A DNA stretch of 64,000 nucleotides from an uncultured Methanospirillum sp. (GCA_964624045.1 CAZUXC010000001.1:24662-88661), one strand, 5' to 3'. Shown: positions 34,670 through 55,160, counted from the stretch's first letter. The notes: a model not told the origin generated them from the letters alone. Numbers and translations are program-made.

Positions 34670-35221
34670 ATGGATATCGGGGAGATGCAAACTGAATTTA
34701 CCCGGATAGGCAACAGACTTGTCATCGAGCACCTAATCGGCGGTAATTTTGGTAACATGAGTGTGCGAATGACCGAAGAGGGGTTTTTTATAACCCGGAC
34801 GGGTTCTTTCCTTGACGAACCAGGGGATCTGGTATTCGCGCCTATTTTCGGAGATATGCCCAGGGAGGCATCGAGTGAATGGCGTGTTCACCGGACAGTA
34901 TACCAGAATACCCGTCATGGGGCAATTGTTCATGCTCATCCCCCCTACGCAGTGGCAGCATCACTCCTCATGGATGAAATCATTCCCCTTGATAGTGAAG
35001 GGAAGATGTTCTGTCCGAAAATACCAGTGGCACTGGGAGAACCTGGCACTCAGGATCTTGCTGATGATGTGGCTGAGTATCTGGCACTCGCTCCCCTATG
35101 TATTGCACGCGGGCATGGAACTTTCGCAGCAGGAAAGACATTGCAGGAAGCGTATCTTTTTACCTCACTTGCTGAACATGCGTGCCGGGTTCTCTCTTTG
35201 ATAGCCACTTTACAGAGGTGA
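34670..35221 (+). CDS. Class II aldolase/adducin family protein (FucA-like)
   Basis: GNMSVR, ASSEWRVH, HAH, RGHGTFAAG. Confidence 0.88.
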   Translation: MDIGEMQTEFTRIGNRLVIEHLIGGNFGNMSVRMTEEGFFITRTGSFLDEPGDLVFAPIFGDMPREASSEWRVHRTVYQNTRHGAIVHAHPPYAVAASLLMDEIIPLDSEGKMFCPKIPVALGEPGTQDLADDVAEYLALAPLCIARGHGTFAAGKTLQEAYLFTSLAEHACRVLSLIATLQR

Positions 35222-35226
35222 AGTCC

Positions 35227-35589
35227 TTGGAAATTGAAGAGAAATTTTCCAGGCTTAGTCCTGAAGCGCAGAATGCAGTTACAGCCTTTATTGATTTTTT
35301 GATATCCCGCGGTGGGGAATCAGAAAAAGCAGAAATTCATGATGGAGAAATCTGGGATGAAAACCTGGACGAAGATGTTCAGTCAGTTCGTGATGATGTG
35401 CAGCCTTCTTCCCAGAAGGATCAGGAGATGACGAATCCCTCCGGGATAATTCTTGCAGAAGAACGTCCAATTGATGAATCCGAGAGTATAATCGATTTTG
35501 CAGATATTAATACCAGGTTTGCGCCAAAAAATCCTGAATCAGAGAAGAAAGGGCAGGTAAAACAGCGAAAAATGTTTGACTGGTTATAA
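35227..35589 (+). CDS. Acidic hypothetical protein with DUF2281-like N-terminus
   Basis: FSRLSPEAQNAVTAFIDFL; TTG start 5 nt after SD GAGGTGA. Confidence 0.55.
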   Translation: MEIEEKFSRLSPEAQNAVTAFIDFLISRGGESEKAEIHDGEIWDENLDEDVQSVRDDVQPSSQKDQEMTNPSGIILAEERPIDESESIIDFADINTRFAPKNPESEKKGQVKQRKMFDWL

Positions 35590-35605: not shown

Positions 35606-36226
35606 TCATACCACCCTCGTGGTTGTCGAGAGTTCAATTCCCTTTTCTGCTAAAATGAATGGAAGAACCCGGCCTGGTGGTTGCATCCCAGATAATTTTT
35701 TAATCTCAAGTGCTTTGATAATCTCAGAACCCCTGAGTTCCTCATGAAGCTCGATGACGGTATCACAGAGCCTGATGAGAAGAATTTCATTATACGGAGC
35801 ATGAAGACCACGATAGAGAGTAAAGAATGCATGATCTTTTGCCTCCTTGATGATCTGTCGACAGGAGACTATACCCATAAGAACCTGATCGATGCCATCT
35901 TTCATAATCAGGGTAGACAACGAATCAACTACCAGCCCCTTTCCCTGCTCCCCCCTGAAGATGTCCTGAGCAGGCATAGCCCTTGCATAGACCATACCTT
36001 CATCAAGATATCCATCTAGCATATAAAAAACCCTTTTTTCAGGAGATACTGACCAAAACTGTTTTGCGAACTGATCCAATCCGGATGTTGCCGAACCAAT
36101 GAGAAGAATGGAGCTCCCGGGGATGAAACCTCCTTCAAGCGCGAGATCCAACCCGTTTATTCCGGTAGAACTCCTCCCCTTGTAAGCCCGGATCACCGGC
36201 TGGCGTTCACCACCCTCATCTGCCAT
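35606..36226 (-). CDS. Single-domain KaiC/RAD55/ArlH-like RecA-fold protein with degenerate Walker A
   Basis: STGINGLDLALEGGF, LLIGSATSGLDQF (no Lys), LVVDSLS, LEIKKL.G, FILAEKGIE. Confidence 0.8.
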   Translation of the reverse strand: MADEGGERQPVIRAYKGRSSTGINGLDLALEGGFIPGSSILLIGSATSGLDQFAKQFWSVSPEKRVFYMLDGYLDEGMVYARAMPAQDIFRGEQGKGLVVDSLSTLIMKDGIDQVLMGIVSCRQIIKEAKDHAFFTLYRGLHAPYNEILLIRLCDTVIELHEELRGSEIIKALEIKKLSGMQPPGRVLPFILAEKGIELSTTTRVV

Positions 36227-36306
36227 ATATATCTCCTGAGTGTATTGTTCAGTCTCAGTACGGTATCATTATATTTTCGCCTTTGTAATTAGATATTATA
36301 CCAGTA

Positions 36307-36401
36307 CGGCAGGGGTCCTTGCCTGCCGATAGATAGCAAAGCCGGGGGGGCAAGCATATACCAACGCAGAGAGGGTCAGAACACTCTCACGGATATGAGA
36401 G
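36307..36401 (+). promoter_or_regulatory. Structured 5' leader candidate of the pilus ATPase operon
   Basis: Stem CGGCAGG/CCTGCCG (36307-36328); CTCTC(A) at 36384-36389 can pair with either GAGAG (36369-36373) or TGAGAG (36396-36401) next to the ATG. Confidence 0.35.
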
Positions 36402-38306
36402 ATGGCACTTAAAATAACAATAGGAAAAGGAAAGAAGACGACAGAAGGAGGAGCGAATAGCAAAGCAGAAGAATCTGGGTCGAGTGAGATAGGATCTACA
36501 AGCCCACCTGTAGTTCCCCGGATTAGAAGAATAAAACCAGAAACAGTAAAATCAGAAACTCCACAGGACATTTCGACTAATGAGGGGGAGATTGAGAAGA
36601 CGAGTAGTAAAATTCCCGGGCTTTTGAAGAAAAAGAAACAAGAGAAGAAGATAGGCTCCACTGAGCCCATAGAAGGGAGTGGAAGCGGCAGAACTGATGA
36701 AAGTGGGCAAAAAAAGGTCGGGCTCCTGAGCAGATTAACGAGTATTAAACCACAAAAAGCACGGGAGACGTATGATCCGCAAATCCATGGGGAGTTAATC
36801 GATCTGACCTATGTTCCCCCACAGGGCGTGGAACAGATCGAGGTGTACCCAGTAAATCCTCCATTTTCTTACATCAGAATAACGTACAACTACCCTAACC
36901 ATGAGTATCTTTATGAAGTAGTTGAACCGGATTACACTGAATCTGAGAAGAAACTCCTGGAAGAGCTGAAAAAGGGAATATTTGAGCGTGTTAATGTTAA
37001 CACCCGTCAGATATCACGGGAACACGCGGCAGATCTTCTCGAAGAGATGATGAACGAGGTCTTTGCAGACTACGCAATTCACCTGGATCCTAAGACATAC
37101 GCAAAAATTCATTATCAGTTGCATAAAGATTTCCTTGGAAACGGTATGGTTGATGCAATCATGCATGACCAGTTCATCGAGGATATCTCCTGCGATGGCG
37201 TGGAACGGTATCTCTTTGTCTACCACTCAAAATATGAATCGATGGAGACAAATCTGAAATATACCGATTCCGGAGAACTTGACTCTTTTGTAACGAAATT
37301 AGCCCAGAGAGCAGGAAAACATATTTCAGTAGCTGAGCCCATGCTTGATGCAACGATGTCAGATGGATCGCGTATCCAGATGACTTTGGGAACGGAAGTA
37401 ACTGCTCACGGTTCCACCTTCACGATTCGTAAATTTAAAGAAGTTCCAATCACTCCAACGGATCTCATTGAATGGGGCACTTTCTCTCCTTTGTCCATCG
37501 CGTTTCTCTGGCTTGCCGTGGAAAATGCAAAATCATGCATATTTGCCGGGGGGACGGCATCTGGAAAGACCACTTCGCTCAACGCAATATCACTCTTCAT
37601 CCCACCGTTGGCAAAGATTGTCACTCTTGAAGATACCCGTGAGTTAAAACTTCCCCATTCGAACTGGATTCCCAGCGTAACCAGGGAATCTTTTGATATC
37701 GCTGGAAAGGGGGAGATCGATATGTACGAACTCCTTAAGGCGGCTTTAAGGCAGCGCCCGGAGTACCTGATTGTCGGTGAAGTACGTGGAAAAGAAGCAC
37801 TCACCCTCTTTCAGGCAATGAGTACTGGTCACGTTACCTATTCTACCATGCATGCAGACTCAGTTGCAAGTGCAGTTCACCGGCTTGAAAATCCCCCAAT
37901 ATCTGTTCCAAGAAACATGTTATCTGCCCTGAATTTAATCTGCGTCCAGGTCCAGGCAAGGGTAGGAGGACAGAGAATACGAAGAAACAAACAGATTATT
38001 GAGATTCTGGATATTGACCCAAGAACGAATGAACTTATTACCAATGAGGTCTTCCGGTGGAGACAGGCAACTGATGAGATCACCTATTCAGGGAAATCAT
38101 ACATCCTGGAGGAGATCATGGAGGCGCATGGCTGGGATGAGGAAAGAGTCAGGAGGGATCTCATGCAACGTCAGGAAGTTCTGGAGTGGATGCGTCAGAG
38201 AAACATTCGTGACTATCGGGAAGTGAGCAACATCGTCGTCTCGTACTTCCGGGACTCAGAGGGGCTGATGGAACAGATCCGATCCGGTGCCAATGAACTC
38301 ATATGA
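36402..38306 (+). CDS. Type II/IV secretion (type IV pilus assembly) ATPase, ArlI/TadA-like
   Basis: IEDISCDG, DGSRIQ, TIRKF, Walker A GGTASGKTT, Asp box LEDTRE, LRQRPEYLIVGEVRG, His box STMHA. Confidence 0.95.
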   Translation: MALKITIGKGKKTTEGGANSKAEESGSSEIGSTSPPVVPRIRRIKPETVKSETPQDISTNEGEIEKTSSKIPGLLKKKKQEKKIGSTEPIEGSGSGRTDESGQKKVGLLSRLTSIKPQKARETYDPQIHGELIDLTYVPPQGVEQIEVYPVNPPFSYIRITYNYPNHEYLYEVVEPDYTESEKKLLEELKKGIFERVNVNTRQISREHAADLLEEMMNEVFADYAIHLDPKTYAKIHYQLHKDFLGNGMVDAIMHDQFIEDISCDGVERYLFVYHSKYESMETNLKYTDSGELDSFVTKLAQRAGKHISVAEPMLDATMSDGSRIQMTLGTEVTAHGSTFTIRKFKEVPITPTDLIEWGTFSPLSIAFLWLAVENAKSCIFAGGTASGKTTSLNAISLFIPPLAKIVTLEDTRELKLPHSNWIPSVTRESFDIAGKGEIDMYELLKAALRQRPEYLIVGEVRGKEALTLFQAMSTGHVTYSTMHADSVASAVHRLENPPISVPRNMLSALNLICVQVQARVGGQRIRRNKQIIEILDIDPRTNELITNEVFRWRQATDEITYSGKSYILEEIMEAHGWDEERVRRDLMQRQEVLEWMRQRNIRDYREVSNIVVSYFRDSEGLMEQIRSGANELI

Positions 38307-39228
38307 GCGTTTCTGCTTCAATCTGCTCGGAAGCAGGATGGTTGCCAAGAGGGATAATTACTTTGACCTGATTGCAAATCTCCGTTCAGCCCGAATGGGC
38401 ATCACCTTTGAAGCTTATCTTGCAACGGCTACCATCACCTCAGCGATTGTCGGAGTACTGGGATCCATTATCGTCGCATTGATCGTGTATCTGCTCAACA
38501 TTCCTGCATTGATTACCTTCAAAGGAAATATTCCTCTGGATATTGCAACGGGGATCAATCAATTTTCCGTGTATTCATTGATCATCGGGACTTTAATTGC
38601 AGGAGTGGGATCATTTGTGATATTTGGGGGGTTTACGTACCTGGCTTACCTCATTTATCCATCCATAGTAGCCGGTTCCAGGCGCCGGGATATTGAGTCA
38701 AGCCTGCCGTATGCGATCAATTATCTGGCGGCCATGTCAACCGCAGGAATTCCTCCTGCTGAAGTTTTCAGGCAACTCGGAAATTCTTCGATTTATGGAG
38801 AGTCGTCAGTGGAGGCAAGATATGTTACCCTCGAAGTGGATGTTTTTGGAAAAGACCTCATCGAAGCATTAAAAAATGTCTCAATGGCAACTCCAAGTCC
38901 ACGAATGAGGGAGTTCATGCAAGGTGCTATTGGAAGCGTAGCATCAGGATCTAACATCTCTGAATATTTTAAAACCAAAGCAGAGCAATATACCTTTGAA
39001 AACCGTCAGACCCAAAAGCAGTTTCTTGATACACTGGCCCTGGTTTCGGAGAGTTATGTAACAGCTCTGGTTGCCGGAACTCTTTTTCTGATCCTGATCC
39101 AGTCAGTCATGTCAATCCTTTCAGGTGAAGGAACACCGTTCTTTCTCTATATTATCATCTATCTGATTATTCCATTCGGCAGTGTTATGTTCGTCGTTAT
39201 GATAGATGCGATGACCCCGGAGTGGTAA
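38287..39228 (+). CDS. Type II secretion system F-family (TadC/ArlJ-like) platform protein
   Basis: IESSLPYAINYLAAMSTAG, FGKDLIEAL, TPSPRMREF, SGS; 3 TM segments. Confidence 0.9.
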   Translation: MPMNSYERFCFNLLGSRMVAKRDNYFDLIANLRSARMGITFEAYLATATITSAIVGVLGSIIVALIVYLLNIPALITFKGNIPLDIATGINQFSVYSLIIGTLIAGVGSFVIFGGFTYLAYLIYPSIVAGSRRRDIESSLPYAINYLAAMSTAGIPPAEVFRQLGNSSIYGESSVEARYVTLEVDVFGKDLIEALKNVSMATPSPRMREFMQGAIGSVASGSNISEYFKTKAEQYTFENRQTQKQFLDTLALVSESYVTALVAGTLFLILIQSVMSILSGEGTPFFLYIIIYLIIPFGSVMFVVMIDAMTPEW

Positions 39229-40232
39229 ATATGGGCTTACTTGATCGATTTAAAAAGAAAGATGAGGTTTTACTTAGCCCAGAGGAGGAAGCTGCGAGGA
39301 GAATTCTTGATAAGATAGAACTTCACCGGGAGTATTCAGAAGGAAATCTTCGGATCATCAGACATCCGATACGAACTCTGACCGAAAAACCAGTGAATAT
39401 TCTTTTTGCGTCCGTACCTATAGGAATCATTGTCTTCATCCTTGGATTTGCCATGGCAATTCAGGAAGGGGGAATTGAATCACTTCTGACGAAATCATTC
39501 ATTGACGATGTTGTAGTCATTACCCTACTGGTTATTCTTACTCCTCTTGTCATTCTGGATCTCCGGGAAGCACGAAGAGTAAGAAGCATCGAAACCGCTC
39601 TTCCGAATTTTTTCAGAGATCTCGCAGGAATGCACGAGAGTGGGATGACTCTGCAGGGAGCAGTTCATCTGGTTTCGATGAGTGAATATGGAGCCCTGAC
39701 ACCCCATATCAGACAGATGGATCAACGAATATCCTGGAATTTCCCATTCATTGATGCGGTCAGAGCACTTGGTGATGAGATCCCGATCCCCCTGGTCCGT
39801 CGAAGTGTAGATCTTATCGCCAGAGCAAGCGAAGCAGGAGGAGACATTGTTGAAGTTCTTCGAGCTGCAGCAAAAGATTCGTTTGAGTATGTTACCCAGA
39901 ACACAGACCGTCGCAATAATATGTTCATCTATGTGGTCATCGTTCTTGCATCATTTGGAGTATTTCTCTTCGTGATGCTTATCCTTGTCTCCTCATTTCT
40001 TAAAACCATGGCTGATCTCGGTACAACAAGTGCATCCGGTGCTCCGGGATTTAATATGGGAGCATTCGACCTGGCATTATATATCAGGATTTTTTCTCAT
40101 GGAGCCATGTTTCAGGGATTTTTCTCTGGTCTGGTAGCAGGGGTTATGGGGGAAGGCAGGGTTACTGCCGGGCTCAAATATTCAGTTATTATGCTCCTCA
40201 TCGCCTGGATTGTTTTCAGAGTGGCTGTCTGA
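39222..40232 (+). CDS. Second T2SS F-family (TadC-like) platform protein
   Basis: IETALPNFFRDLAGMHESGMTL, YGALTP, AGGDIVEVL, QGFFSGLVAGVMGEG...AGLKYS. Confidence 0.9.
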   Translation: MVNMGLLDRFKKKDEVLLSPEEEAARRILDKIELHREYSEGNLRIIRHPIRTLTEKPVNILFASVPIGIIVFILGFAMAIQEGGIESLLTKSFIDDVVVITLLVILTPLVILDLREARRVRSIETALPNFFRDLAGMHESGMTLQGAVHLVSMSEYGALTPHIRQMDQRISWNFPFIDAVRALGDEIPIPLVRRSVDLIARASEAGGDIVEVLRAAAKDSFEYVTQNTDRRNNMFIYVVIVLASFGVFLFVMLILVSSFLKTMADLGTTSASGAPGFNMGAFDLALYIRIFSHGAMFQGFFSGLVAGVMGEGRVTAGLKYSVIMLLIAWIVFRVAV

Positions 40233-40262
40233 TATATTATTGGATTTCCTTTTTCCAGAGTT

Positions 40263-42320
40263 TTAAAGGCTGTCAGATGTCTCATCAACATCACGGGGCA
40301 GTCCCTGACTCGATGGCCGAAATATACCATCAGGAATTGTAATAATAAATTCTGCACCGATACCATAAGTTCCCCGTTCACAAATCCTCATCCCCGTAAG
40401 ATCAAGTACCTCTTTTACAAAAAAGAGCCCCCAACCAGTTCCAGTCCCTACCCCCCTTTCGAAGATACGTTCTTTCATGGTATCAGGAATCCCTCCCCCG
40501 TCATCTTCATAGATGACTAGGAGATCTGAACCATCACGCTTTGAGGATACTGTAATATAAAAAACGTCTTTTCCATGTCGCAGAGTATTATCGATAAGAT
40601 TGTAGAAGACTTTCTGAAGGAGTTGATCCGCGTAAATCTCATAATCTTCTCCAGTAATGGAAAAAGTGAGCCCTCTCCTTCTTGACATGGCATAAGCGAG
40701 ATTCCAGGTTGTTCGGACATCCTGCCACCGGGGCTCTTCAATTCCTGCCTTCTGATACTCTTTGGAGAACTCGATATGCTTGTTAATCTTCTCAGCTGCA
40801 TCCTCCGCCCCCCCAATTAATTGAATCAGGGAAGAGTCAGTATTTTTTCGTTTTATTAGCCCTATCATCCCCCTGATGGTAGTAAGCTGATTGACAATAT
40901 CATGTCGGGTCATGCTCCCTAAAAGGGCTAATTTTTTGTTTGATAATAATAATTCCCGCTCTGCAGTTCGAAATTGAGTAATATCTGTGATAACACAGAG
41001 TTTCCCCATCTTCCCGGTATCAAGAGGATATGGAGCCAGAGTCACCCTGACCCAGAGATCCTTTCCCCCAGACGTTTTGGTGTGAATTTCATGGTGTCCC
41101 TGATCAATATTGGTAATACACTGACCATTCTGATTTTCTGATTCCCCTTCTTTGAAAAGATCCTCAAGACATGTTCCATTCAGAGCATGAGGTGTAGTTT
41201 CAAACATGGTTCCGACGGTTGCATTCGCAAACCAGATGAGGTTGTCAGGACCGACTAGGCAGATACCCTCTTCAACCAGTTCTACCAACCGGGCCAGACG
41301 ATGTTCCGAGGTAAGGCGCTCCCGGTGAGATGCCTCAAGAGATCCAATCATCGAGTTGATCGAAGAAGTCAAATCTCCAATCTCATCATCCCTGTTAAGC
41401 GGTATTCTTCCAGAGAGGGAACCAGATCTCCCAATGGAGAGAAGATCCCGATTCAAATCCTGTAGAGGAGTAATAATGATCCGATTCAAAAGCCATGAGG
41501 CGAGTCCCATAAAAAGGAGAGTCAAAAGAAGAAGTGAAGTTATCAGAAATGCCCGGGAGTAAAGCCCACTTTTGTTCAGATCCTCTCGTTCATGAATCTT
41601 TAGGAGAAGAACCGGTTTTCCCGTAATGTCATTGATCACTTTCTGACTACTGGAAACCGGCATATCAGGTAAAGCAGGTGAGATGTTACCAGAGGAAAGT
41701 AGCAGAGGAGTAATAGTTATGTTCTGCAAAACATTCCGCGACATATCAGAGATCATCCCGTTGTCCAGAGGGTTGATAATAACTACAACACCCCGGGAAG
41801 GCCCCTCCATATCAGAATTCAAAATATCATGGGAGGCAACCATCAGAGGGGAATCATTACCCATAAGAATGCCGGAGTACCCATCTTTTGGAGGGTGAAG
41901 AAGGGATGAATGCAATATGATCTGATTCAGGGATTCTGAAATTGGGAGAGCATATTTATCATTCCAGTTTTTTACTATACCCCCTACAATAGAGCCATTC
42001 GTATCATATAATGCAATTGCGTAGATGTTTTGCCCTTTTAGAGCCGAAGGCACAAAATTTGAGGAGAGGTAACTAGAATTCCCGGACTCCATAAATGAAT
42101 ATGTATCATCCCAGATCCCCCAATCCCGGGAAATCCCAGCCAGACGAGATGATTCTGAAAAGATTACATTTTCTGCTCTCTGGAGATCTTCAGAGATGTA
42201 ATCACGCTCAAGCGATGAAAGACTGCCCATCACCGTTAATTCAAATGTGACGAGAAGAATAGCAGCAACAGCCAGAACAGTGATCCCAACAATGAGGATA
42301 GTTTGTGCATATAACCGCAT
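40263..42320 (-). CDS. Sensor histidine kinase: CHASE4-HAMP-PAS-HisKA-HATPase
   Basis: TM1, DWGIWDDTYSF (CHASE4), TM2, HAMP (DEIGDLTSSINSM), PAS, H-box RHDIVNQL, N-box NLIDNTLRHG, DDGGGI, GTGWGL. Confidence 0.92.
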   Translation of the reverse strand: MRLYAQTILIVGITVLAVAAILLVTFELTVMGSLSSLERDYISEDLQRAENVIFSESSRLAGISRDWGIWDDTYSFMESGNSSYLSSNFVPSALKGQNIYAIALYDTNGSIVGGIVKNWNDKYALPISESLNQIILHSSLLHPPKDGYSGILMGNDSPLMVASHDILNSDMEGPSRGVVVIINPLDNGMISDMSRNVLQNITITPLLLSSGNISPALPDMPVSSSQKVINDITGKPVLLLKIHEREDLNKSGLYSRAFLITSLLLLTLLFMGLASWLLNRIIITPLQDLNRDLLSIGRSGSLSGRIPLNRDDEIGDLTSSINSMIGSLEASHRERLTSEHRLARLVELVEEGICLVGPDNLIWFANATVGTMFETTPHALNGTCLEDLFKEGESENQNGQCITNIDQGHHEIHTKTSGGKDLWVRVTLAPYPLDTGKMGKLCVITDITQFRTAERELLLSNKKLALLGSMTRHDIVNQLTTIRGMIGLIKRKNTDSSLIQLIGGAEDAAEKINKHIEFSKEYQKAGIEEPRWQDVRTTWNLAYAMSRRRGLTFSITGEDYEIYADQLLQKVFYNLIDNTLRHGKDVFYITVSSKRDGSDLLVIYEDDGGGIPDTMKERIFERGVGTGTGWGLFFVKEVLDLTGMRICERGTYGIGAEFIITIPDGIFRPSSQGLPRDVDETSDSL

Positions 42321-42428
42321 TCTTAGCCACCTAAATTCTCCAGATTAAGGATCCGTTCTCAAAACGAAAGCATTATGAAAGACCAGGGATTCAGAATTTT
42401 ATCCTCATCCGGGCCTTTAGGGTCTAGG

Positions 42429-43877
42429 TCACGCAAGTTCCACAATGTGAGAAGACTCCGGTTCTCGTACCTGAAATGCGAATGTATGAAGATTTCCATT
42501 ATCCGTTAAAACAACACCGGAGTAATCCCCAAACAAAAGTTGAAAGCTTACCTGACCAGAACCCGAGGTAATATCATTGCCTACGATCTTTCCTCCACTT
42601 TTTATCGTGATTCGTATCCCAGAGACAGGTTTTCCACTCTTTCGAAGGTCGAGAGTGATATTTCCAATACCCTTCCTCACAGAGATTTCAGGTATGGCAT
42701 AGGTATTTGGAGCACGGATGTGGCTTTTATCATAGATGCGACAACCAGTAATAAAGCGGGTGGCAATCTCCGCAGGCGTGGGATACAGAGTAAACTGATG
42801 ACTATCTTTGAGAAAAAGAGTACTTTTATCCCCATATAGTACCCCGGATCGATCAATATAAATTCCTCCTTCGGGTTCCCCATTCAGAAATATCAAAAAC
42901 GCCCGATGCCCATCCTGGCCAGTTGCCGATGCGATACCATCGGTTTTAGAGCTCCGTGCATGTCGCACTAGATCTGGTAATGAAAAAGATCCTGCTGGAC
43001 GGGTATTTTCAATGATAAAGTTTAGAGGAACATTCTCATCGAAATCCCCTAAATCACGGGGAATATCAGTAGCTTTCTCCTGATATTTCTCTTCATACTG
43101 CCTGATATCATCCCGGGCCTGGTCTCGGACACTGATATCCCGCCCAGTTGCTTTACAGCTGACAAGTATTCCATCTGAAGAGAAGACACCCTCAATGTGC
43201 CAGGAAAAGGTCAGAGATCTTCCATCAGGAGAGTTCAATGTCTGTTGCAGTTCTACGGTGGACGATTCAGGATTGAGGAGGCTGATAGCACTCTGAAGTT
43301 CATCCTGATCCTCATATGAGAGATCTGAGAGAAATTTCCTCCCAATCATATCGGTGGGTCCAAACCCATAGAGTGATGAGAATGCCTCATTCGAGCGGAT
43401 TATTGTCAAATCCGGAAGAAAATCTACAATCAACTCATTCTGCACACTGAGGACAGAATGATAGAGTTGTTCCCGGGCAGCCAGCTCTTCCTGCACGTCT
43501 TTCCGATCAGCAACCTGAATAATCCTCTGCTCAAGGATGCTGAACTGCTCAAAGGGATCACTCCCCTTTCGAATATAATAGTCAGCACCATGATTGAGTG
43601 CTTCAATTACCACTTCTTCTTTTCCTTTTCCGGTAAAGAGAAGAAATGGGATGTTGCCAAAATTTTTGCGTATATACTTCAGGAGGGAAACCCCGTCCAT
43701 ATCCTGCATCTGATAATCCGATACAACAACCTGGAAGGTAGCTTTTCCCAGAGCCTCTATGGCTTCCCGGCCTGAACTAACACAGGTGAGCTCAACCTTA
43801 CCGGAGTGTCCTAAATATTCCTGGGCAAGCATCAGATGCGGGATCTCGTCATCGACATATAGGACCTGAATGGGCAT
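42429..43877 (-). CDS. Response regulator: REC-PAS-DUF4388/PATAN-like-beta-sandwich
   Basis: REC intact (VDDE, D54 in SDYQM, FTG, YIRK); PAS aa ~140-250; FSLPDL..SKTDGI..IFLNGE..LYGD pattern at aa ~297-368; prealbumin-like C-terminus. Confidence 0.8.
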   Translation of the reverse strand: MPIQVLYVDDEIPHLMLAQEYLGHSGKVELTCVSSGREAIEALGKATFQVVVSDYQMQDMDGVSLLKYIRKNFGNIPFLLFTGKGKEEVVIEALNHGADYYIRKGSDPFEQFSILEQRIIQVADRKDVQEELAAREQLYHSVLSVQNELIVDFLPDLTIIRSNEAFSSLYGFGPTDMIGRKFLSDLSYEDQDELQSAISLLNPESSTVELQQTLNSPDGRSLTFSWHIEGVFSSDGILVSCKATGRDISVRDQARDDIRQYEEKYQEKATDIPRDLGDFDENVPLNFIIENTRPAGSFSLPDLVRHARSSKTDGIASATGQDGHRAFLIFLNGEPEGGIYIDRSGVLYGDKSTLFLKDSHQFTLYPTPAEIATRFITGCRIYDKSHIRAPNTYAIPEISVRKGIGNITLDLRKSGKPVSGIRITIKSGGKIVGNDITSGSGQVSFQLLFGDYSGVVLTDNGNLHTFAFQVREPESSHIVELA

Positions 43878-43975
43878 ATTTGAGCCTATGGTGTTAGTTT
43901 AGTGTTCGGAGTGATAATTGTTTCCTTGTCTCAAATCAATCCAGGAGAGATACATTTCTGATCTATTGATATCAT

Positions 43976-44007
43976 AAGAAAAACAGAATCGGGGAAATAT
44001 CCCCTAT
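43976..44007 (-). terminator. Hairpin plus U-tract terminator candidate ending the pilin array
   Basis: GGGG-AAATAT-CCCC at 43991-44004, followed on - by TTCTGTTTTTCTT. Confidence 0.45.
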
Positions 44008-44071
44008 TTACAAAAAATGACACTTTGGAGACATTAGAATGGAGAAATAGAAAGAAAGGTGAGATTTAAGT

Positions 44072-46210
44072 TTAATGTTGAACATTAAACGAACTGCTTA
44101 CAGCGTACATGGAATTTCCCGCAGCATCATATGCAATGACTTTAAATTTCGCATTGGAATAAGAGCGCCCAGGAGTCCAGGAATATGAATCAGTCTTTGT
44201 TTGCCCGGCTGTCGTTGTCCAGGAACTGCTTCTAAGAATATATGGATAGGTAGATCCTCCATCATCAGAAAGACGTATCTCAATCTTTGTTACCCCGAAA
44301 TTGTCACTGGCAGTCCATCCAATAATTACGGGTTTGGTTTTATTCTGCTGAGACCGGGTAATTCCACTCACACTTGGGGGGGTCGTATCAGGAGCCGGAG
44401 TTACCGTCGGAGCCGGAGTGGGTGTTGGGGTTGGAACCACATTCAGGGAGACATTGCCATTCACATAGAACTCCACATCATTATAATCCTTATCACCACC
44501 CCCATAGAAATCCTCAAACGTGATGAGATATTTGTGATAGGTTCCTGTAGAATTTTTCAAGGATATCGCCCCATGAACTATCCCATCCGGGTTTCTGGAT
44601 GCCGGGCCGGTTTTATAGGTGCGTCCATTTGCAACATCAGCAAAGATGAGTTCCTGATTTGTTGCGAATTTTCCCAACGTCCAGCTGGTTCCAACTTTGG
44701 TTGTCTTTGAGTTCCCGAGGGCGACGGTACGGGGACTATCCAATCGGAATACATTTTCATATCCTGCATCAGAGAAAGCGAAGTCCACTGATACGTCCGT
44801 AGTATCATCAGCAGCATATAACTGTGCCCCGACACCGCCTTCATTTATCGGAATGACGGTTGGTGATACCGTTGGTGTGGGTGTGGGTGTTGGAGTGACT
44901 TCAACTGCTTTTGCCACTACACCAAAATCGACTTGAGGAGGATTCTTCTTGTCCTGACCGGTTAGTTTATTATCATAATTCAGATACGAATTATTGGTAT
45001 AGTAGCCACTTGGAAGATCTGCGATAAGATCAAACGCCCAGCCAGACATCTGAATGCATCTTGAATTCCATCCACCAGTCTGTAAAGGAGTGTACAAGTC
45101 TACAAAATTCTCCACATTTGGATTATTCTTATATCTTCCCGTCAGGTTTACTTTGCCTTCAGTGAATCCGGGCTCACCCGCATCTTTTAGACCATTATTA
45201 TTGGTATCATAGTACATATATCCCCAGATGCAGGTTTCTGATGCACCACAACTGCACTTCACCGAATCACATTTGGCAATAGCACTTACCGAGTTTCCTA
45301 GCCTCCATTGGATCCAGTTTTTAAAGGGCACCGTAAATGAACGGGATGCTTTGCTACTTTCACTATTTGCCAGAAACTCTTTTGGCTGACCCATGTCCTT
45401 TTTGAGATAGTTGAAATCTCCAGTTCCAATGCCAACAAACTCATTCCAGGGTTGTGGGCAGGAGGTATTTCTTATTGGATTTCCATTCTCATCGATTATC
45501 GAGGCTTCTCCAGTACATGGGGAGACCTTCAGAGTCATGTCAAGAGTGTTATCATAATAAAAGGTAGCATTACAGAACCCGTAATCCCCACTAGACACAG
45601 AATTATTCTCTAGCACCGGGGTGAACTTTCCCGTCATCAGCTCCTTCATGGATGCTTCCTGAACAGAGCTAGTTGTGTCATTATAACTCGTCTCATCTTT
45701 TACCCGATCAAAATACTGCGTCCCTGTCCCACCCGGACCTGTCTGACCGTTGTTTAGAATAATAATTCCTTTTGGAATATCTCCTTCAGTCTCATTTATC
45801 CCTTTATTGACGATCACCTTTGCAATCATCCCGGGTCCAAAAGAACTGATGCTTTCCCAATTGTATTTGATACCTCCACTTGGCGACAATGACGATTTGG
45901 CGCTACACTCTGGGGGCTCTTTGGTATATACCTCCACAGCATCCGGGCTCACAGTTTGACCGTTTCGCTTTAAAACTTTAAATTCAGTGGAATCTGTGGG
46001 AAATGATTCTCCTGCATCGTGTTTGACGATAACTTCATACGATGATTCGCATTCAACACAATATGACCCTGTAGTTGCCGTGGGAAATTTTACCCCCTGA
46101 TCAGGTGATGAGCCCATTAGATATGTACCAATTACAGCAAAGGCCACAACAACTATTCCAATTAAAAATACTGCACCAAGAACTTCAGAAACTGCTCTAT
46201 CATACCTCAT
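44072..46210 (-). CDS. Giant type IV pilin-like adhesin (class III signal peptide, DUF1628-like, SdrD-B-like, DUF4114-like, Ig-like)
   Basis: MRYDRA/VSEVLG plus hydrophobic helix; IVKHDAGE; GYMYYDTNNNGLKDAGEPG; FEDFYGGGDKDYND; two PT linkers; DTTPP..WTASDNFGV. Confidence 0.8.
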   Translation of the reverse strand: MRYDRAVSEVLGAVFLIGIVVVAFAVIGTYLMGSSPDQGVKFPTATTGSYCVECESSYEVIVKHDAGESFPTDSTEFKVLKRNGQTVSPDAVEVYTKEPPECSAKSSLSPSGGIKYNWESISSFGPGMIAKVIVNKGINETEGDIPKGIIILNNGQTGPGGTGTQYFDRVKDETSYNDTTSSVQEASMKELMTGKFTPVLENNSVSSGDYGFCNATFYYDNTLDMTLKVSPCTGEASIIDENGNPIRNTSCPQPWNEFVGIGTGDFNYLKKDMGQPKEFLANSESSKASRSFTVPFKNWIQWRLGNSVSAIAKCDSVKCSCGASETCIWGYMYYDTNNNGLKDAGEPGFTEGKVNLTGRYKNNPNVENFVDLYTPLQTGGWNSRCIQMSGWAFDLIADLPSGYYTNNSYLNYDNKLTGQDKKNPPQVDFGVVAKAVEVTPTPTPTPTVSPTVIPINEGGVGAQLYAADDTTDVSVDFAFSDAGYENVFRLDSPRTVALGNSKTTKVGTSWTLGKFATNQELIFADVANGRTYKTGPASRNPDGIVHGAISLKNSTGTYHKYLITFEDFYGGGDKDYNDVEFYVNGNVSLNVVPTPTPTPAPTVTPAPDTTPPSVSGITRSQQNKTKPVIIGWTASDNFGVTKIEIRLSDDGGSTYPYILRSSSWTTTAGQTKTDSYSWTPGRSYSNAKFKVIAYDAAGNSMYAVSSSFNVQH

Positions 46211-46409
46211 TTTTCTATTCCCCCTTTGGAATGATGCAACATATTCCTGCAATAGTATTTAATAGTATGGGAGAATATTATTAATGAATTTTAATATTTT
46301 AAAATTGTACTCTCCATATTTAAATGCTCCCCAATTACCCCTCAATAGGATCCATATTAAAGTCCTACGAATTCGCAAATAAAATTGAAGACAGTCCTAT
46401 TGGGAGGAT

Positions 46410-47303
46410 TTAATATGCAAGACAGGTTACTTGTCTCGTTGACATACTGCCTAAATTATAAACAACTTTCCCTTTGAACTTCGTAATTCTCACTGCAACA
46501 GCTCCCGACATTTCCGGTTCAAATGAACTTTTGGGAGTGCCATTGAGTTCCCAGGTTGAATAAAACCCCTCTACTGGTTCGAGAAAATTCCACATGCTCT
46601 GAAGCCTGTTCCCATAGGCAAATTCTCGGGTGCTCTGACCGGTATTTTTGTAACCAAATTCGACATCACAACCATCCGCTGACCATGATGAGACAGAACT
46701 CACGTATGGGACCATATCAAACATTACCGGATCCGTGTTGTTTAATACAATATATCCAGTGCCGGTGTTTGGACTTGTGATATTGCGGACATAGGATACT
46801 CTAAGTTGAGAAACCGTAGAATATCCAAATGAAGATGGTTCTTGAACCAGAATTGTTGTGGGGAGTTCACTTACTCCCCCCACATAACTGAATTTTAATG
46901 ACTTTCCAGTACTCAGGGTTCCACTTGCTCCAGGCCAGGTATCCCCTGTTACCCCATCACAGGAATAGGGAGGCTTGCCATTTGGATCGCTAATACGAGG
47001 AAAGAGTGTGATATTACTCACGGGATCAATAATCAATGCAGAATTATTTTGAATAACACTAACCCGAAGACCACTAAGGTCGACAATCTGACCACCTTCG
47101 TGATCAATAAGAATATCATACTGGGTAGGATTCAGATTCGGACAATAACTACACTTCACCCCAAGGACCGCCTTGAGAGAACTCGAAGGAGGAGGGATTG
47201 AGAGGAGCATAACTGTTATGATTGTCAGTCCGGTCATCAACATGGTAACGAGAAGTAATGCACCGACAATCTCAGATACAGCAGCCTCCCTAGGTGTGCA
47301 CAT
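46410..47303 (-). CDS. Type IV pilin-like protein (DUF1628-like)
   Basis: REAA/VSEIVGALLLV plus hydrophobic helix; ILIDHEGG; ends in a domain resembling the middle of the giant pilin (FGYKN; NLGSM vs FYYDN; RLGNS). Confidence 0.8.
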   Translation of the reverse strand: MCTPREAAVSEIVGALLLVTMLMTGLTIITVMLLSIPPPSSSLKAVLGVKCSYCPNLNPTQYDILIDHEGGQIVDLSGLRVSVIQNNSALIIDPVSNITLFPRISDPNGKPPYSCDGVTGDTWPGASGTLSTGKSLKFSYVGGVSELPTTILVQEPSSFGYSTVSQLRVSYVRNITSPNTGTGYIVLNNTDPVMFDMVPYVSSVSSWSADGCDVEFGYKNTGQSTREFAYGNRLQSMWNFLEPVEGFYSTWELNGTPKSSFEPEMSGAVAVRITKFKGKVVYNLGSMSTRQVTCLAY

Positions 47304-47417
47304 CGTATTCTATCGATATGTACCTATCCCAATGATAAAGATATCACTAATTCCTTGGCACTCTCAAAAGGAGATCATAATAAAGATTCATGCCAAAAAA
47401 AGAAAGATTTACAATTA

Positions 47418-48044
47418 TTAAAATTTCTTACTGACAAGCACATACTCATTACCAGATCGATAATCCTGATAATTAATAATAACGATGTTGGGTGGCTCGG
47501 TAATCGGCAACCGCATTACTTCCCCTGCTTTAAATTGACCAGTAGTTAAATCCCGATGAAATGTCGTTTGATTCTCATAAATATCGTATTTTTTGGGAAT
47601 TATTTTTCCATTTATGCGTATTGACAATTGATCAATATTCAGCGAATCACCCCCGTTATGACAAATAAATAACATATTACAGGAACTAAGAATCGTTTTA
47701 TTGACGCAATTTGGTTGCTCTTCACACTGAGCCATACAAGTTTTATATTGGGGATTGCTAACTGCAGGACAGGCATTTTTACAAGCGCCATAATTTATAG
47801 AAACATTATGGTCACAACTGATCATCCCCGTACGACATGAGAAATCACAGGGTATTCTTGGATCAGTACAATTACTATTACCAGTGCCATTTCCACAACC
47901 AATTTCTATATTGATATAAGGAGGGGAGGATGTTGGAATTTGACCAATCCATTGGGCACCAATAATCCCAATAACTATGGCAATTATCCCAGTAAGGACA
48001 ATTGCTCCAATCATCTCTGCAGAACCCTGATCTCTCGTTACCAT
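47418..48044 (-). CDS. Cys-rich type IV pilin-like protein (DUF1628-like)
   Basis: DQG/SAEMIG plus hydrophobic helix; ICHNGGDSL; FKAGEVM; 12 Cys in aa 50-128. Confidence 0.78.
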   Translation of the reverse strand: MVTRDQGSAEMIGAIVLTGIIAIVIGIIGAQWIGQIPTSSPPYINIEIGCGNGTGNSNCTDPRIPCDFSCRTGMISCDHNVSINYGACKNACPAVSNPQYKTCMAQCEEQPNCVNKTILSSCNMLFICHNGGDSLNIDQLSIRINGKIIPKKYDIYENQTTFHRDLTTGQFKAGEVMRLPITEPPNIVIINYQDYRSGNEYVLVSKKF

Positions 48045-49765
48045 CAGAGTGCCCCACTCTGAATCACTAAAGATACGCGTGATTTAGAGTAATCATAAAA
48101 GAAAGGCCGCAATGCTGAGCCAGCAATACAACCCGCATGCCCAGGACCACTATGATCAGGAGTTTCGTCAGCAGCACAGGCGTTTAATCTGGCCACATAA
48201 TCTTCTAGGTTATTTGTGCCAATACCGGAGAGATGCTCCCATACATCATTACCAATAATCAATGATGCAGATAGAGGATCAGAATCATATAACGTAAGCA
48301 TTTTATGTGCAGGATCGATCGACATCTGTCTATCTGACATCGTCTTCTGGGTGATAACGTACACCTGATCAAATGCCCGCTTCCAAAGATTGGTAGTGAT
48401 GCTATCACCAGTATTCTGAGGCTTAAAAGTAATTATGACGTACTTGGCATTCGGTTCCCCGGAAATCAGGGCGTAAGGTATTATTTGTGCACCTTGATTA
48501 TCTGAGATCTGGTTTTTAACAACAGAATCTACCTTTGCGAAAACCTGGGCTGTCTTTGAACCACTTACATCATTCGTATCAGTTATTGAAACCCCAACAA
48601 GAGAAGCTTTGATATTTGGACCTAATGCATCAGCAGTGTCAACCGGGGTGACCGCAAGGGAGGGAATGAGCATAATTGATACCCCTTCATTCTGCTTCAA
48701 AAATAATCCACCCATCTCATACAATAACTCCTGATTGATCCAATACCGATTTTGAGACCAGTATTGAAGAGAACCCAGAGGTTGATCCGCCTCAATTATA
48801 TGGTTCCATGTGGGTTCTCCCATACCATTAGATAGGCCAGTAGCGAGATTAAATTCCAACATCCCTGGATCTGTTGTCATAATCTCATTGATCTTCGAAA
48901 GATCAAATATGTGAGACTGGTTTGTTGCATTTTCCTGAAGGGTACGCCGATACTGAATGACATCATTCTGAGTCTGTTCAGTCCAGTTATAAAAATCAAA
49001 AATAATATCGGTTTGCTCTTTAATTGCAACATAATCAGTAGTATTGGGACCAGGTGAGTGCGTGGTATTATTTACCCAGCTGATAATATTCTTATTAAAA
49101 ACCCTTGGGTCAGGATAGGCACTGAGATCCACATCATACTTCGTCTCAATTTCATACTTGGTTTCAGGATGAATAACGAATTTTCCGTACTTTTCTTTGA
49201 TGATGGTAACATTGGTCTGATTACTGACCATAGTGTATGAATAATTCAAATGGTGGATAGTTCCATTAATTGTATTATTAATACTTTGAATCCCGGGATA
49301 ATTGACATACAGATGTTCTCCATCAACCCATTGGGCAGGGATATCTGCATTCGCAGGGGGATCAACAAATTGATCTACGATCAAGGGAGGGGTAACGGTT
49401 TTAAATACCCCTTGAACGGTCAACGTATCCATCTGTTCATTCACCAGCAAAGTACCTGCTGCCTCGATAAAACCCTGAATCGGCACTATCGATAAAGCAC
49501 CCTGACCAGTTGAGGCTAATGTTCCAAGTTCAAATGAACGAGCAATCGGTACATTTACTCGTTCATTAATAATGAGGGAGTCAACATCGGATTTAAGATC
49601 GATAAATTGCTGAGTCACATATTTCATGTGGGCAATTTCAGCATCTTTTCCCTGTATTGGGACCACATACAGGAGGTACATTGAGAATAATATGCCAAGC
49701 AGAGCTACGATCATCAAAAACCCAATAACTTCGGACAGCCCCTGCTCCTTCGTACATCCCGCCAT
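48044..49765 (-). CDS. Large pilin-like protein with class III signal peptide
   Basis: KEQG/LSEVIGFLMIVALL, VP..GKDAEIAHM..V..QF.DLK pattern typical of euryarchaeal pilin-like proteins; many N-x-S/T sequons. Confidence 0.72.
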   Translation of the reverse strand: MAGCTKEQGLSEVIGFLMIVALLGILFSMYLLYVVPIQGKDAEIAHMKYVTQQFIDLKSDVDSLIINERVNVPIARSFELGTLASTGQGALSIVPIQGFIEAAGTLLVNEQMDTLTVQGVFKTVTPPLIVDQFVDPPANADIPAQWVDGEHLYVNYPGIQSINNTINGTIHHLNYSYTMVSNQTNVTIIKEKYGKFVIHPETKYEIETKYDVDLSAYPDPRVFNKNIISWVNNTTHSPGPNTTDYVAIKEQTDIIFDFYNWTEQTQNDVIQYRRTLQENATNQSHIFDLSKINEIMTTDPGMLEFNLATGLSNGMGEPTWNHIIEADQPLGSLQYWSQNRYWINQELLYEMGGLFLKQNEGVSIMLIPSLAVTPVDTADALGPNIKASLVGVSITDTNDVSGSKTAQVFAKVDSVVKNQISDNQGAQIIPYALISGEPNAKYVIITFKPQNTGDSITTNLWKRAFDQVYVITQKTMSDRQMSIDPAHKMLTLYDSDPLSASLIIGNDVWEHLSGIGTNNLEDYVARLNACAADETPDHSGPGHAGCIAGSALRPFFYDYSKSRVSLVIQSGAL

Positions 49766-54224: not shown

Positions 54225-55160
54225 TTATTCGTGAGAAACAAAAAAGAGAGTATTACTCTCTGCAGACCGGTAGGTGTCATCTCCTTCAAACGATGCTACA
54301 AGACCTACCGAATTTGAGAACATTACCGAGAGAGAGGTCTCGAACCGTCCATCTGATCCGGTAACAACTGTAGCAAATGGATCAGATCCAGATGCTCCCG
54401 GATACCCGGTCTCGTCAATACCAATTGTTGCTCCGCTGATACCCTTTCCATCCTGATCGGTAAGCCGACCCGAAATCACGACATCTTCACCGACTTTCGG
54501 ATTCATGGTTTGAGCACTGATGGTAAGTTGAGTTAAAACCGGGAGAGATGAAGGGTGATTACCCGCGGTCTGCATGGGAATAATTGTCTGAACAGGAGTG
54601 ATGACCGGCTTAATTACTGGCTCTTTACCTGGATCAGTAAACCGTATGGCATTTGAAAGGTATTGAGAAGTTCCGGATTTCGCATTCACACGGAACAGAT
54701 CAAGGTGCTGATACGTGGCCGGTACGGCCCAGACAAAGAGCCCGTTTTCATCAGGCTTGAGGGTAGTAAGATCTGAATAATCAGAGTCAGAACCCCCTCT
54801 CCCCTGGATCGTTAACACAGCATCATTACGCACTCCGCTCAGATATCCGACGATCATAAATGTCTCCTGACCACTCAGGGATGCAGTAAATGGAGATATG
54901 GTAACCCAGGCGGATCCGGTTTTCTGAGAGGAAGGAGATGATAGTGAAGGGGTTGTATCATCCTTTGGTTCAATGGTGACAGTAGGAAATATTCCCAGAC
55001 CGACGGTAGCTGCATCCTCAACATTCCAGTCATCATATCTGCCGATAACACTTCCGGAGAAGTCTTCGGCACTAGCAGGGAAGATACATACCAGAGCCAG
55101 TATCAGGGAGAGGGCACTAAAAAGATGAATTTTTCGATGTGATTGATACTGATAAACCAT
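54225..55160 (-). CDS. Secreted Ig-like domain protein
   Basis: Signal peptide; GEDVVISGRLTDQDGKGISGATI, TGSDGRF, ASFEGDDTYRSAES (Big-like). Confidence 0.65.
   Translation of the reverse strand: MVYQYQSHRKIHLFSALSLILALVCIFPASAEDFSGSVIGRYDDWNVEDAATVGLGIFPTVTIEPKDDTTPSLSSPSSQKTGSAWVTISPFTASLSGQETFMIVGYLSGVRNDAVLTIQGRGGSDSDYSDLTTLKPDENGLFVWAVPATYQHLDLFRVNAKSGTSQYLSNAIRFTDPGKEPVIKPVITPVQTIIPMQTAGNHPSSLPVLTQLTISAQTMNPKVGEDVVISGRLTDQDGKGISGATIGIDETGYPGASGSDPFATVVTGSDGRFETSLSVMFSNSVGLVASFEGDDTYRSAESNTLFFVSHE

Follow-up and report, generated by a model that had tools for sequence, protein, structure and literature searches.

How is a type IV pilus other than the archaellum switched on and off in a methanogen? 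Post-transcriptional switching of archaeal adhesion pili is largely unknown; the 2016 census of archaeal pilus loci states that little is known, and lists no two-component link for non-archaellar pili (Makarova et al., 2016, PMC4858521). The question is raised by a locus at positions 35606-49765 of a 64,000-nucleotide stretch of DNA from an uncultured Methanospirillum sp. (GCA_964624045.1 CAZUXC010000001.1:24662-88661), which is referred to as the window throughout this paper and lies at G000:C1:24662-88661 of a 3.95-Mb genome. A preliminary description, made from the sequence alone, had proposed here a pilus locus with an embedded signalling chain. The ten genes which it placed at 35606-49765, namely a KaiC-like gene, an ATPase gene and two TadC genes, a CHASE4 histidine kinase gene, a REC-PAS regulator gene and four pilin-like genes, were all present at their places, and Pfam and NCBIfam searches bore out this gene list, one pilin-like gene being recognised by its N-terminus.

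The reading that we favour, and consider fairly probable, is that the locus comprises a clade-2 pilus module with a KaiC-like pseudo-ATPase, a pilin cassette, and a dedicated two-component pair that gates pilus assembly via the output domain of its regulator, here named domain X. Below, the signalling pair and domain X are treated first, followed by the pilus machinery, the pilins, and the comparison with known systems.

The Histidine Kinase and the Response Regulator

The sensor histidine kinase (40263-42320, minus strand; 685 aa) is a membrane protein, and its gene is convergent with the TadC gene across a gap of 30 bp. The protein consists of a transmembrane segment (residues ~5-30), an extracellular CHASE4 domain (53-203), a second transmembrane segment (254-277), and HAMP, PAS, dimerisation and HATPase_c catalytic domains (HATPase_c, 51.8 bits). 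The phospho-accepting histidine is H473, within a box (TRHDIVNQL) that does not vary among 14 Methanospirillum orthologues; the N, G1 and G2 boxes read NLIDNTLRHG, DDGGGIP and GTGTGWGL. The assignment of a convergent CHASE4 histidine kinase is borne out by the CHASE4-HAMP-PAS layout and the intact H, N, G1 and G2 motifs. Across these orthologues, conservation within the kinase is highest in the dimerisation domain (66-88% identity) and lowest in CHASE4 (25-49%). The rapid evolution of CHASE4 parallels that of the pilins described below, both being exposed outside the cell, and leads one to expect cues that differ between species.

The response regulator gene (42429-43877, minus strand; 482 aa) precedes the kinase gene in the same orientation, at a distance of 108 bp. 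Its product contains a receiver domain (REC, residues 1-~120), a PAS domain (~150-255), and about 200 residues without a known family that form the output domain X (284-482, nt 42432-43028). The receiver matches Response_reg with 69.9 bits and has all the expected residues, D9, D10, D54, T82 and K103, of which D54 is the predicted phospho-acceptor; over the regulator as a whole, identity to the M. lacunae protein is 82%. Taken together, the invariant H-box, the N, G1 and G2 boxes, the conserved dimerisation domain and the receiver residues are signs that the pair is probably active.

It could be supposed that this regulator is a transcription or RNA-binding factor, with X binding nucleic acid and setting the expression of the pilin cassette or the ATPase operon, since most characterised response regulators act on transcription and the regulator gene directly follows the pilin block in the same orientation. 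In the Pfam and NCBIfam scans, however, the regulator matched no helix-turn-helix, DNA-binding or other nucleic-acid-binding family; the C-terminal half of X is predicted to be a transthyretin-like beta-sandwich, whose matches in the Protein Data Bank (PDB) are mostly cell-surface adhesin, pilin and enzyme-accessory domains; and both the regulator and the kinase are retained in M. stamsii, M. purgamenti and the genome G029, where no pilin genes adjoin them. Such a role is improbable.

Linkage of the Pair to the Pilus Locus

The locus was scanned using one genome per species, which yielded 20 Methanospirillum loci. All 20 carry the fused REC-PAS-X regulator, and the order regulator, kinase, TadC, TadC, ATPase, KaiC-like protein is kept wherever the contig reaches, with identities falling to ~59% for the regulator and 43% for the kinase. 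In 20-kb regions of four other Methanospirillum genomes the order is identical: F420 oxidoreductase, aldolase, 135-aa protein, KaiC-like protein (minus strand), ATPase, TadC, TadC, kinase (minus) and regulator (minus). The kinase-regulator pair adjoins TadC in every Methanospirillum contig long enough to hold the whole kinase (15/15), and a kinase of equal architecture stands beside the regulator in the sister genus g12. Presence and absence also coincide: six of seven high-quality Methanospirillum genomes have both the regulator and the orthologous ATPase, and the seventh (G047) has neither, while three mismatches in the presence of the two genes all come from assemblies that are 72-84% complete.

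The preliminary description had called the pair dedicated, and had proposed the synteny of kinase and regulator with ATPase-TadC in relatives as a check. The pair is present at this locus in the relatives, so the condition named as refuting, its absence there, did not hold; the adjacency to TadC, the arrangement in g12, the joint presence (6/7) and joint absence (1/7) of regulator and ATPase, and the stand-alone form of X in pilus loci of Methanoregulaceae all agree with that proposal. One part of it has to be narrowed: the regulator stands as a part of the locus, whereas the kinase does not do so universally, since the sister genus g8 has no CHASE4 kinase there. With this restriction, genomic comparison indicates that the kinase-regulator pair belongs to the pilus locus and is not a chance neighbour.

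Domain X in Related Genomes

A search of the GTDB family to which the genome belongs recovered X as a separate protein in many other genera. In 43 loci of Methanoregula and Methanolinea, X is a stand-alone gene of ~203 aa. Wherever the contig reaches, both TadC halves and the orthologous ATPase gene (66-75% identity) lie 2-9 kb from it. In ~40/43 loci the gene directly upstream of X encodes a prepilin peptidase (Peptidase_A24 + Arc_PepC_II), on the opposite strand in all but one locus. The gene set between the peptidase and the ATPase includes V4R (37 of the 43 loci), a MinD/ParA-type ATPase (33), Roadblock/LC7 (31), a 181-aa protein (30), a Roadblock-containing 256-aa protein (26) and REC-PAS (25); one example is L058:8500-20500, among the loci L053-L094. 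No literature description of this cytoplasmic gene set as a unit was found, and homologues of the V4R, Roadblock, 176-aa and 256-aa proteins were not detected in the genome of the window.

The position of the peptidase gene suggests another target for X. It could act on pilin maturation, as a cofactor or inhibitor of the prepilin peptidase and not of the ATPase/TadC motor, so that the switch would be on signal-peptide cleavage. Stand-alone X adjoins the peptidase gene in nearly all of the Methanoregulaceae loci, with the ATPase gene several genes further off. In Methanospirillum, by contrast, the fused regulator is found beside TadC and the ATPase, and the peptidase is encoded on another contig. 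That peptidase (a Peptidase_A24 homologue at G000:C6:101569-102393, beside unrelated genes) is the only close homologue detected in this genome, and for that reason the archaellins are probably among its substrates too; a switch meant for the pilus alone would have side effects if it acted there. We regard the peptidase as a rather unlikely target.

In Methanospirillum and the two sister genera g8 and g12, X is fused to REC-PAS. In a midpoint-rooted tree, 24 fused and 48 stand-alone X sequences form separate clades (support 0.71 and 0.98), which fits a single fusion event. A search of 1.84 billion representative proteins with the X profile returned just 55 clusters at E<1e-10, so the family is very small and confined to Methanospirillum, its two sister genera and the Methanoregulaceae. 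Two rare relatives of X, P0138 and P0136, are a fusion to TIR (364 aa) and a tandem form whose first copy is weakly DUF4388-like (324 aa). An X-like N-terminus also occurs on PAS-HisKA kinases (E ~1e-4). Fusions of this kind, to TIR and remotely to PAS-HisKA, are the behaviour of a signalling adaptor domain. In 25/43 Methanoregulaceae loci a separate REC-PAS protein is encoded two genes from X, which likewise counts for a link between the pair and the pilus.

These distributions bear on whether the pair has anything to do with the pilus. If it were unrelated, the gene order would simply be inherited and X would be an unrelated cytoplasmic protein. M. hungatei has 82 kinases and 41 regulators (PMC4704411), which makes chance neighbours common, and synteny within one genus is weak evidence. 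Against this, X occurs beside the same orthologous ATPase-TadC-TadC in two gene arrangements, across families, and nowhere else among the representative proteins, and the regulator and the ATPase were lost together in G047. We therefore consider an unrelated pair very improbable. Of the genomic arguments for an action of the pair on the pilus, the strongest is that a receiver has captured X, a pilus-locus protein, as its output.

Properties of Domain X

No Pfam or NCBIfam family matches X. Its conserved motifs include GEPEG and LYGDKA, besides one in the linker that is given below. In AlphaFold models it consists of an alpha/beta subdomain of ~95 residues, a linker, and a beta-sandwich of the transthyretin/carboxypeptidase-regulatory-like type; X had a pLDDT of 75 with 14 input sequences, and its N-terminal part a pLDDT of 81 and a pTM of 0.73 with 62. 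The whole-X model found only generic transthyretin, CnaB and carboxypeptidase-regulatory beta-sandwiches in the PDB, and the X profile gave only a weak beta-sandwich match to PDB sequences. A weak match to a carboxypeptidase-regulatory-like beta-sandwich, the fold class of the C-terminal half of X, was also seen in a 311-aa protein encoded 3' of the M13 peptidase gene (54225-55160, minus strand). The N-terminal subdomain was compared profile-to-profile with the 181-aa protein of the Methanoregula loci, and the result is suggestive only (P 4e-4, probability 34%).

The regulator had been described as REC-PAS-PATAN-like. The REC-PAS part was confirmed by Response_reg and PAS matches; the PATAN part was not, there being no match of PF14332 (DUF4388/PATAN, cut-off 25 bits) to the window protein (E<=10). 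By eye, the N-terminal subdomain of X resembles the PATAN sequence pattern. Among the relatives of X, PF14332 was matched by 1 of 14 at E 0.055, and one tandem relative scored 18.9 bits (E 0.0016), whereas no match was obtained in the whole genome (E<=1) or in 121 genomes of the phylum (E<=1e-5), and none of the structures among the listed PDB matches of the N-subdomain model (pLDDT 81) is named as PATAN. X was not assigned to PATAN, as X, its 14 relatives, the genome and the 121 genomes gave only two matches, both below threshold; PATAN serves here as an analogy for X.

The Pilus Assembly Core

The assembly ATPase (36402-38306, plus strand; 634 aa) is of the PilB3/afGspE type, with T2SSE (127 bits), PilB3_N and PilB3_C domains and a low-complexity N-terminal region of ~140 aa. 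Its closest solved structure is A. fulgidus GspE (2OAP, 441 bits; FlaI, 290 bits). It scored 418.7 bits on the FlaI equivalog model (cut-off 550) and 213 bits on the bindosome ATPase model (cut-off 1000). The platform protein is split between two genes, of which the first (38287-39228, plus; 313 aa) overlaps the ATPase gene by 20 nt and the second (39222-40232, plus; 336 aa) overlaps the first by 7 nt. Each has one T2SSF domain (PF00482, 49 and 54 bits), and they cover the first and second halves of ArlJ/UpsF: the N-terminal TadC, with three hydrophobic segments, aligns to positions 49-249 of the 555 in the ArlJ model, and the C-terminal TadC to 269-543. The ATPase-TadC-TadC series named in the preliminary description was accordingly recovered as T2SSE, PilB3_N/PilB3_C and two T2SSF proteins. 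This core is an ordinary euryarchaeal clade-2 (PilB3/afGspE-type) type IV pilus assembly module, that is, one of a known kind.

Divergent from the ATPase gene, at a distance of 175 bp, is a gene for a RecA-fold protein of the KaiC/ArlH-like type (35606-36226, minus strand; 206 aa). It matches PF06745 with 42 bits (cut-off 26.6) and is only weakly similar to the ArlH/FlaH models (21.6-29 bits; the ArlH equivalog, with its cut-off at 215, gave 21.6); among solved structures, those of KaiC come nearest (E 1e-5). Its P-loop is inactivated. A functional Walker A motif (GxxxxGK[ST]) is absent from 12/12 Methanospirillum orthologues, in all of which the place is occupied by GSATSG[L/A/I]D, without the Lys-Ser/Thr pair (GSATSGLD in the window), and elsewhere the protein is conserved among the 12 (51-75% identity). 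The term degenerate, used earlier for this divergent KaiC/ArlH-like gene, was apt for the P-loop; because the loss is common to all 12 orthologues and the remainder is conserved, the protein is best regarded as a maintained pseudo-ATPase and not as a decaying gene. It agrees with the concept of an inactivated KaiC, or 'iKaiC', in Galperin et al. (2018, PMC5847659) and may be a non-catalytic ArlH-like partner of the ATPase.

The locus had been said not to be the archaellum, and this holds. An arlF-G-H-I-J operon with a weak archaellin match and cheY/cheB/cheA is located at G000:C6:22244-34848, strong archaellin genes are found on contigs C21, C5 and C15, and both the ATPase and the KaiC-like protein fall below the ArlI and ArlH cut-offs. 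A Pfam scan of the locus found no archaellin, ArlF/G or ArlC/D/E. Readings of the locus as an archaellum, as a CheF/ArlCDE system or as a bindosome were rejected on these model scores and on gene content.

A second ATPase/TadC locus was found in the same genome (G000:C8:150539-160099). It has a fused 643-aa TadC, and divergently upstream are two KaiC-like genes, one with an intact Walker A (GCGKT) and the other with GSGKI; convergent downstream are genes for a 735-aa coiled-coil protein and a soluble HAMP-MCP chemoreceptor. Signalling genes thus border each of the two pilus loci described here, the C8 locus converging with the chemoreceptor and the window locus with the kinase.

The Pilin Cassette

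Upstream of the regulator gene, on the minus strand, four genes for pilin-like proteins are found, three of which pass the Pilin_N cut-off of 25.2 bits. The nearest to the regulator (44072-46252; 726 aa from a TTG codon, the likely true start being M15 at nt 46210) encodes a large adhesin candidate. Its class III signal peptide reads DRA/VSEVLG, and the protein also has Pro-Thr linkers, a DUF4114 domain (33.6 bits) and weak Ig-like matches below the cut-offs (Big_7 and SdrD_B); its Pilin_N score is 42 bits. It is followed by a 297-aa protein (46410-47303; REA/AVSEIVG; Pilin_N 30.5 bits) and a Cys-rich 208-aa protein (47418-48044; DQG/SAEMIG; Pilin_N 30.2 bits), each with one N-terminal hydrophobic helix. 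The first gene in the block (48044-49765; 573 aa) overlaps the next one by 1 nt; its product lacks any Pfam match and is recognised by its N-terminal motif (KEQG/LSEVIGFLMIV) and a single hydrophobic helix, and positional homologues with an equal N-terminus occur in M. lacunae and genus g8. All four can therefore be kept as the class-III-signal-peptide pilin-like genes that had been reported, three by Pilin_N and the fourth by motif and helix.

The pilin genes vary far more than their neighbours. Compared with M. lacunae (L034), CorA is 93%, the regulator REC 90% and the ATPase core 96% identical, whereas positionally equivalent pilins are only 25-39% identical, and the G+C content is 0.39-0.41 across 46-50 kb against 0.44-0.49 around it. 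In the comparison with L034 and L039, the segment 44072-49765 is hypervariable between conserved flanks. No pilin-like open reading frames were found upstream of the regulator in M. stamsii and M. purgamenti, and in G029 the CorA gene abuts the regulator gene with no pilins between. Since pilins are present at the equivalent place in genera g8 and g12, the arrangement is probably ancestral and has been lost or replaced repeatedly. On sequence comparison, then, the pilin block is a fast-evolving, exchangeable cassette and not a fixed part of the locus. It was reported that archaeal ATPase/TadC modules work with exchangeable pilin sets, some of which are encoded elsewhere (PMC4858521), and the variability of the cassette fits this.

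The composition of the cassette also raises the possibility that the regulation is as proposed while the machine is something other than an adhesion pilus, serving adhesin display, cell-cell or sheath/end-plug contacts, or uptake/secretion as in the Sulfolobus bindosome. The pilin-like proteins of the window range from 208 to 726 aa, two being very large and one carrying adhesin-type domains; at the equivalent place there is a 143-aa pilin-like gene in M. lacunae and a 156-aa one in genus g8. The failure to see pili on M. hungatei (PMC4704411), which is taken up below, and the 213-bit match to the bindosome ATPase model point the same way. That match, however, is far below the 1000-bit cut-off, M. 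hungatei has about 11 further pilin paralogues (PMC4704411), and a PilB3-type ATPase with a split TadC assembles the adhesion pili of Haloferax, with the major pilins encoded elsewhere (PMC4858521). A different apparatus is, in our judgement, unlikely.

Points Weighing Against Pilus Control Through Domain X

Several results count against the favoured reading of a two-component pair gating pilus assembly through X. Genus g8 keeps the regulator and the pilin block and has no CHASE4 kinase between the regulator and TadC, so the kinase partner is replaceable; beyond the pilins, one genome of this genus encodes a soluble PAS kinase and a single-domain receiver. Gene order shared inside a single genus is in part a matter of descent and does not count as independent evidence. 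The fold of X offers no functional hint, because nothing analogous to its N-terminal subdomain was found in the PDB (best Foldseek E 0.17, TM ~0.3), and its most conserved motif, GCRI[YF][DE]KSH..PE, falls in the linker that AlphaFold modelled without confidence. As to the separate REC-PAS gene near X in Methanoregula, its REC is only 27% identical to that of the window regulator and the PAS domains do not align, so that a fusion of those two neighbours cannot be shown. The proposal that the Methanoregula REC-PAS is ancestral to that of the window was rejected as unproven, the similarity being below that to unrelated paralogues. Finally, according to its genome paper, electron microscopy of M. 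hungatei has never revealed pili (PMC4704411).

A Proposed Chain from CHASE4 to the Pilus

Three points favour a chain that runs from the CHASE4 kinase through D54 to docking of X: the regulator is without a recognisable DNA-binding part, in relatives X is a cytoplasmic protein that accompanies the pilus machinery, and a comparable case has been worked out for PATAN-REC regulators. In this chain, the membrane kinase would sense an extracellular cue via CHASE4, autophosphorylate on H473 and pass the phosphate to D54 of REC-PAS-X. Phosphorylation would alter the availability of X, which may then bind the cytoplasmic face of the pilus machinery, be it the ATPase, the N-terminal domains of TadC, or the prepilin peptidase, and such binding would switch pilin processing or filament assembly on or off. 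Control by protein-protein contact would be the likeliest mode. The gene identities, the intact kinase and receiver motifs, the conserved adjacency, the joint presence and absence, and the place of X in the pilus loci of relatives are shown by the sequences; phosphotransfer, the partner that X binds, the sign of its effect and an adhesion pilus as the product are inferred.

The cyanobacterial PATAN-REC regulators are the closest worked-out case, in which phosphorylation controls contact with the pilus motor (PMC11181946). As here, a receiver is fused to a non-DNA-binding adaptor domain that is encoded among type IV pilus genes. The domains stand in the opposite order, REC-PAS-X, in the window protein, X has an extra beta-sandwich, and the input is a CHASE4 kinase and not a CheA-type system; the mechanism is transferred to the window by analogy. 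We tentatively propose, as a possibility that falls short of being probable, that X is an archaeal functional counterpart of PATAN, and possibly a very distant relative; that REC-PAS-X is the first archaeal regulator to gate a non-archaellar pilus by contact; and that stand-alone X, V4R, Roadblock, MinD and REC-PAS of Methanoregula form an undescribed cytoplasmic control complex of the pilus.

Comparison with Other Known Systems

According to the census by Makarova, Koonin and Albers, clade-2 loci have two tadC genes, and in Methanomicrobia a KaiC gene is co-transcribed with the ATPase/TadC operon (PMC4858521). The window locus shares with the clade-2 pili of Haloferax volcanii (PilB3-PilC3) and A. 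fulgidus (GspE) the PilB3_N/PilB3_C ATPase, the two tadC genes, DUF1628/Pilin_N pilins and a prepilin peptidase encoded elsewhere, and with those of Methanomicrobia a KaiC-family gene beside ATPase/TadC. It differs in that its KaiC-like protein has lost the Walker A lysine. In the census, signal-transduction genes were set aside, and no kinase-regulator pair or X was found there (PMC4858521). The KaiC link in Methanomicrobia is thus already published, and X was not found described; a full-text literature search of incomplete coverage returned no description of the regulator or of X, which is absence of evidence only.

Lineage-specific output domains are known from the archaeal two-component census, as MetOD1-5 and TackOD1 (Galperin et al., 2018, PMC5847659); X is like none of these. 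TackOD1 (PF18551), from thaumarchaeal pilus loci, is similar to X in being a lineage-specific output domain on REC that also occurs stand-alone in pilus loci (PMC5847659); it differs as a Cys-rich zinc ribbon of the TACK group, whereas X has one conserved Cys and a different predicted fold. Pfam searches gave no match of X to PF18546, PF18548 or PF18551 (MetOD1, MetOD2 and TackOD1), and their published descriptions (3-Cys HNOB-like, four helices, and 11 Cys, respectively) do not fit X. The archaellum switch (CheY-CheF-ArlCDE, ArlH-ArlI-ArlJ) resembles the window locus in that a KaiC-fold partner stands beside a FlaI-superfamily ATPase and an ArlJ-like platform and receiver-domain signalling reaches a type IV filament machine; the difference lies in the absence from the locus of archaellin, ArlF/G, ArlC/D/E and CheF.

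The kinase FilI of Methanosaeta harundinacea reportedly has a CHASE4-HAMP-PAS layout like that of the window kinase, and its partners are said to be transcription regulators of methanogenesis genes; FilI-FilR is not known to be linked to a pilus. Like the window pair, it is a methanogen two-component system, and its paper refers to CHASE4 (PMC3991700).

Genomic Setting

The locus is flanked by a housekeeping backbone, with SecF/SecD, an F420-dependent oxidoreductase and a class II aldolase to its left and CorA and an M13 peptidase to its right; the left-hand part (SecD, F420 oxidoreductase, aldolase) is also kept in one sister genus. Between the aldolase and KaiC-like genes lies a gene for an acidic 135-aa protein of no known family (35182-35589, plus strand), for which the Pfam scan gave only a sub-threshold DUF2281 match. 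This protein is probably disordered, its position is kept in Methanospirillum and genus g8 at 30-54% identity, and it may or may not be part of the pilus system. An Rfam scan of 33-52 kb gave no matches, and the only repeats detected by a repeat scan were those of the Pro-Thr linkers (family D1) inside the 726-aa pilin.

Implications for Methanogens

The locus offers a testable chain from an extracellular CHASE4 sensor through a receiver to an output domain specific to the pilus locus. The pair is one of few archaeal kinase-regulator pairs with an obvious target, kinases being 'generally unlinked' in M. hungatei (PMC4704411). X is a new small family in the cytoplasmic part of the pilus machinery of a methanogen lineage that includes Methanospirillum, Methanoregula and Methanolinea. 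The members of that lineage are key consumers of hydrogen and formate in wetlands and digesters, habitats in which attachment to syntrophic partners is important.

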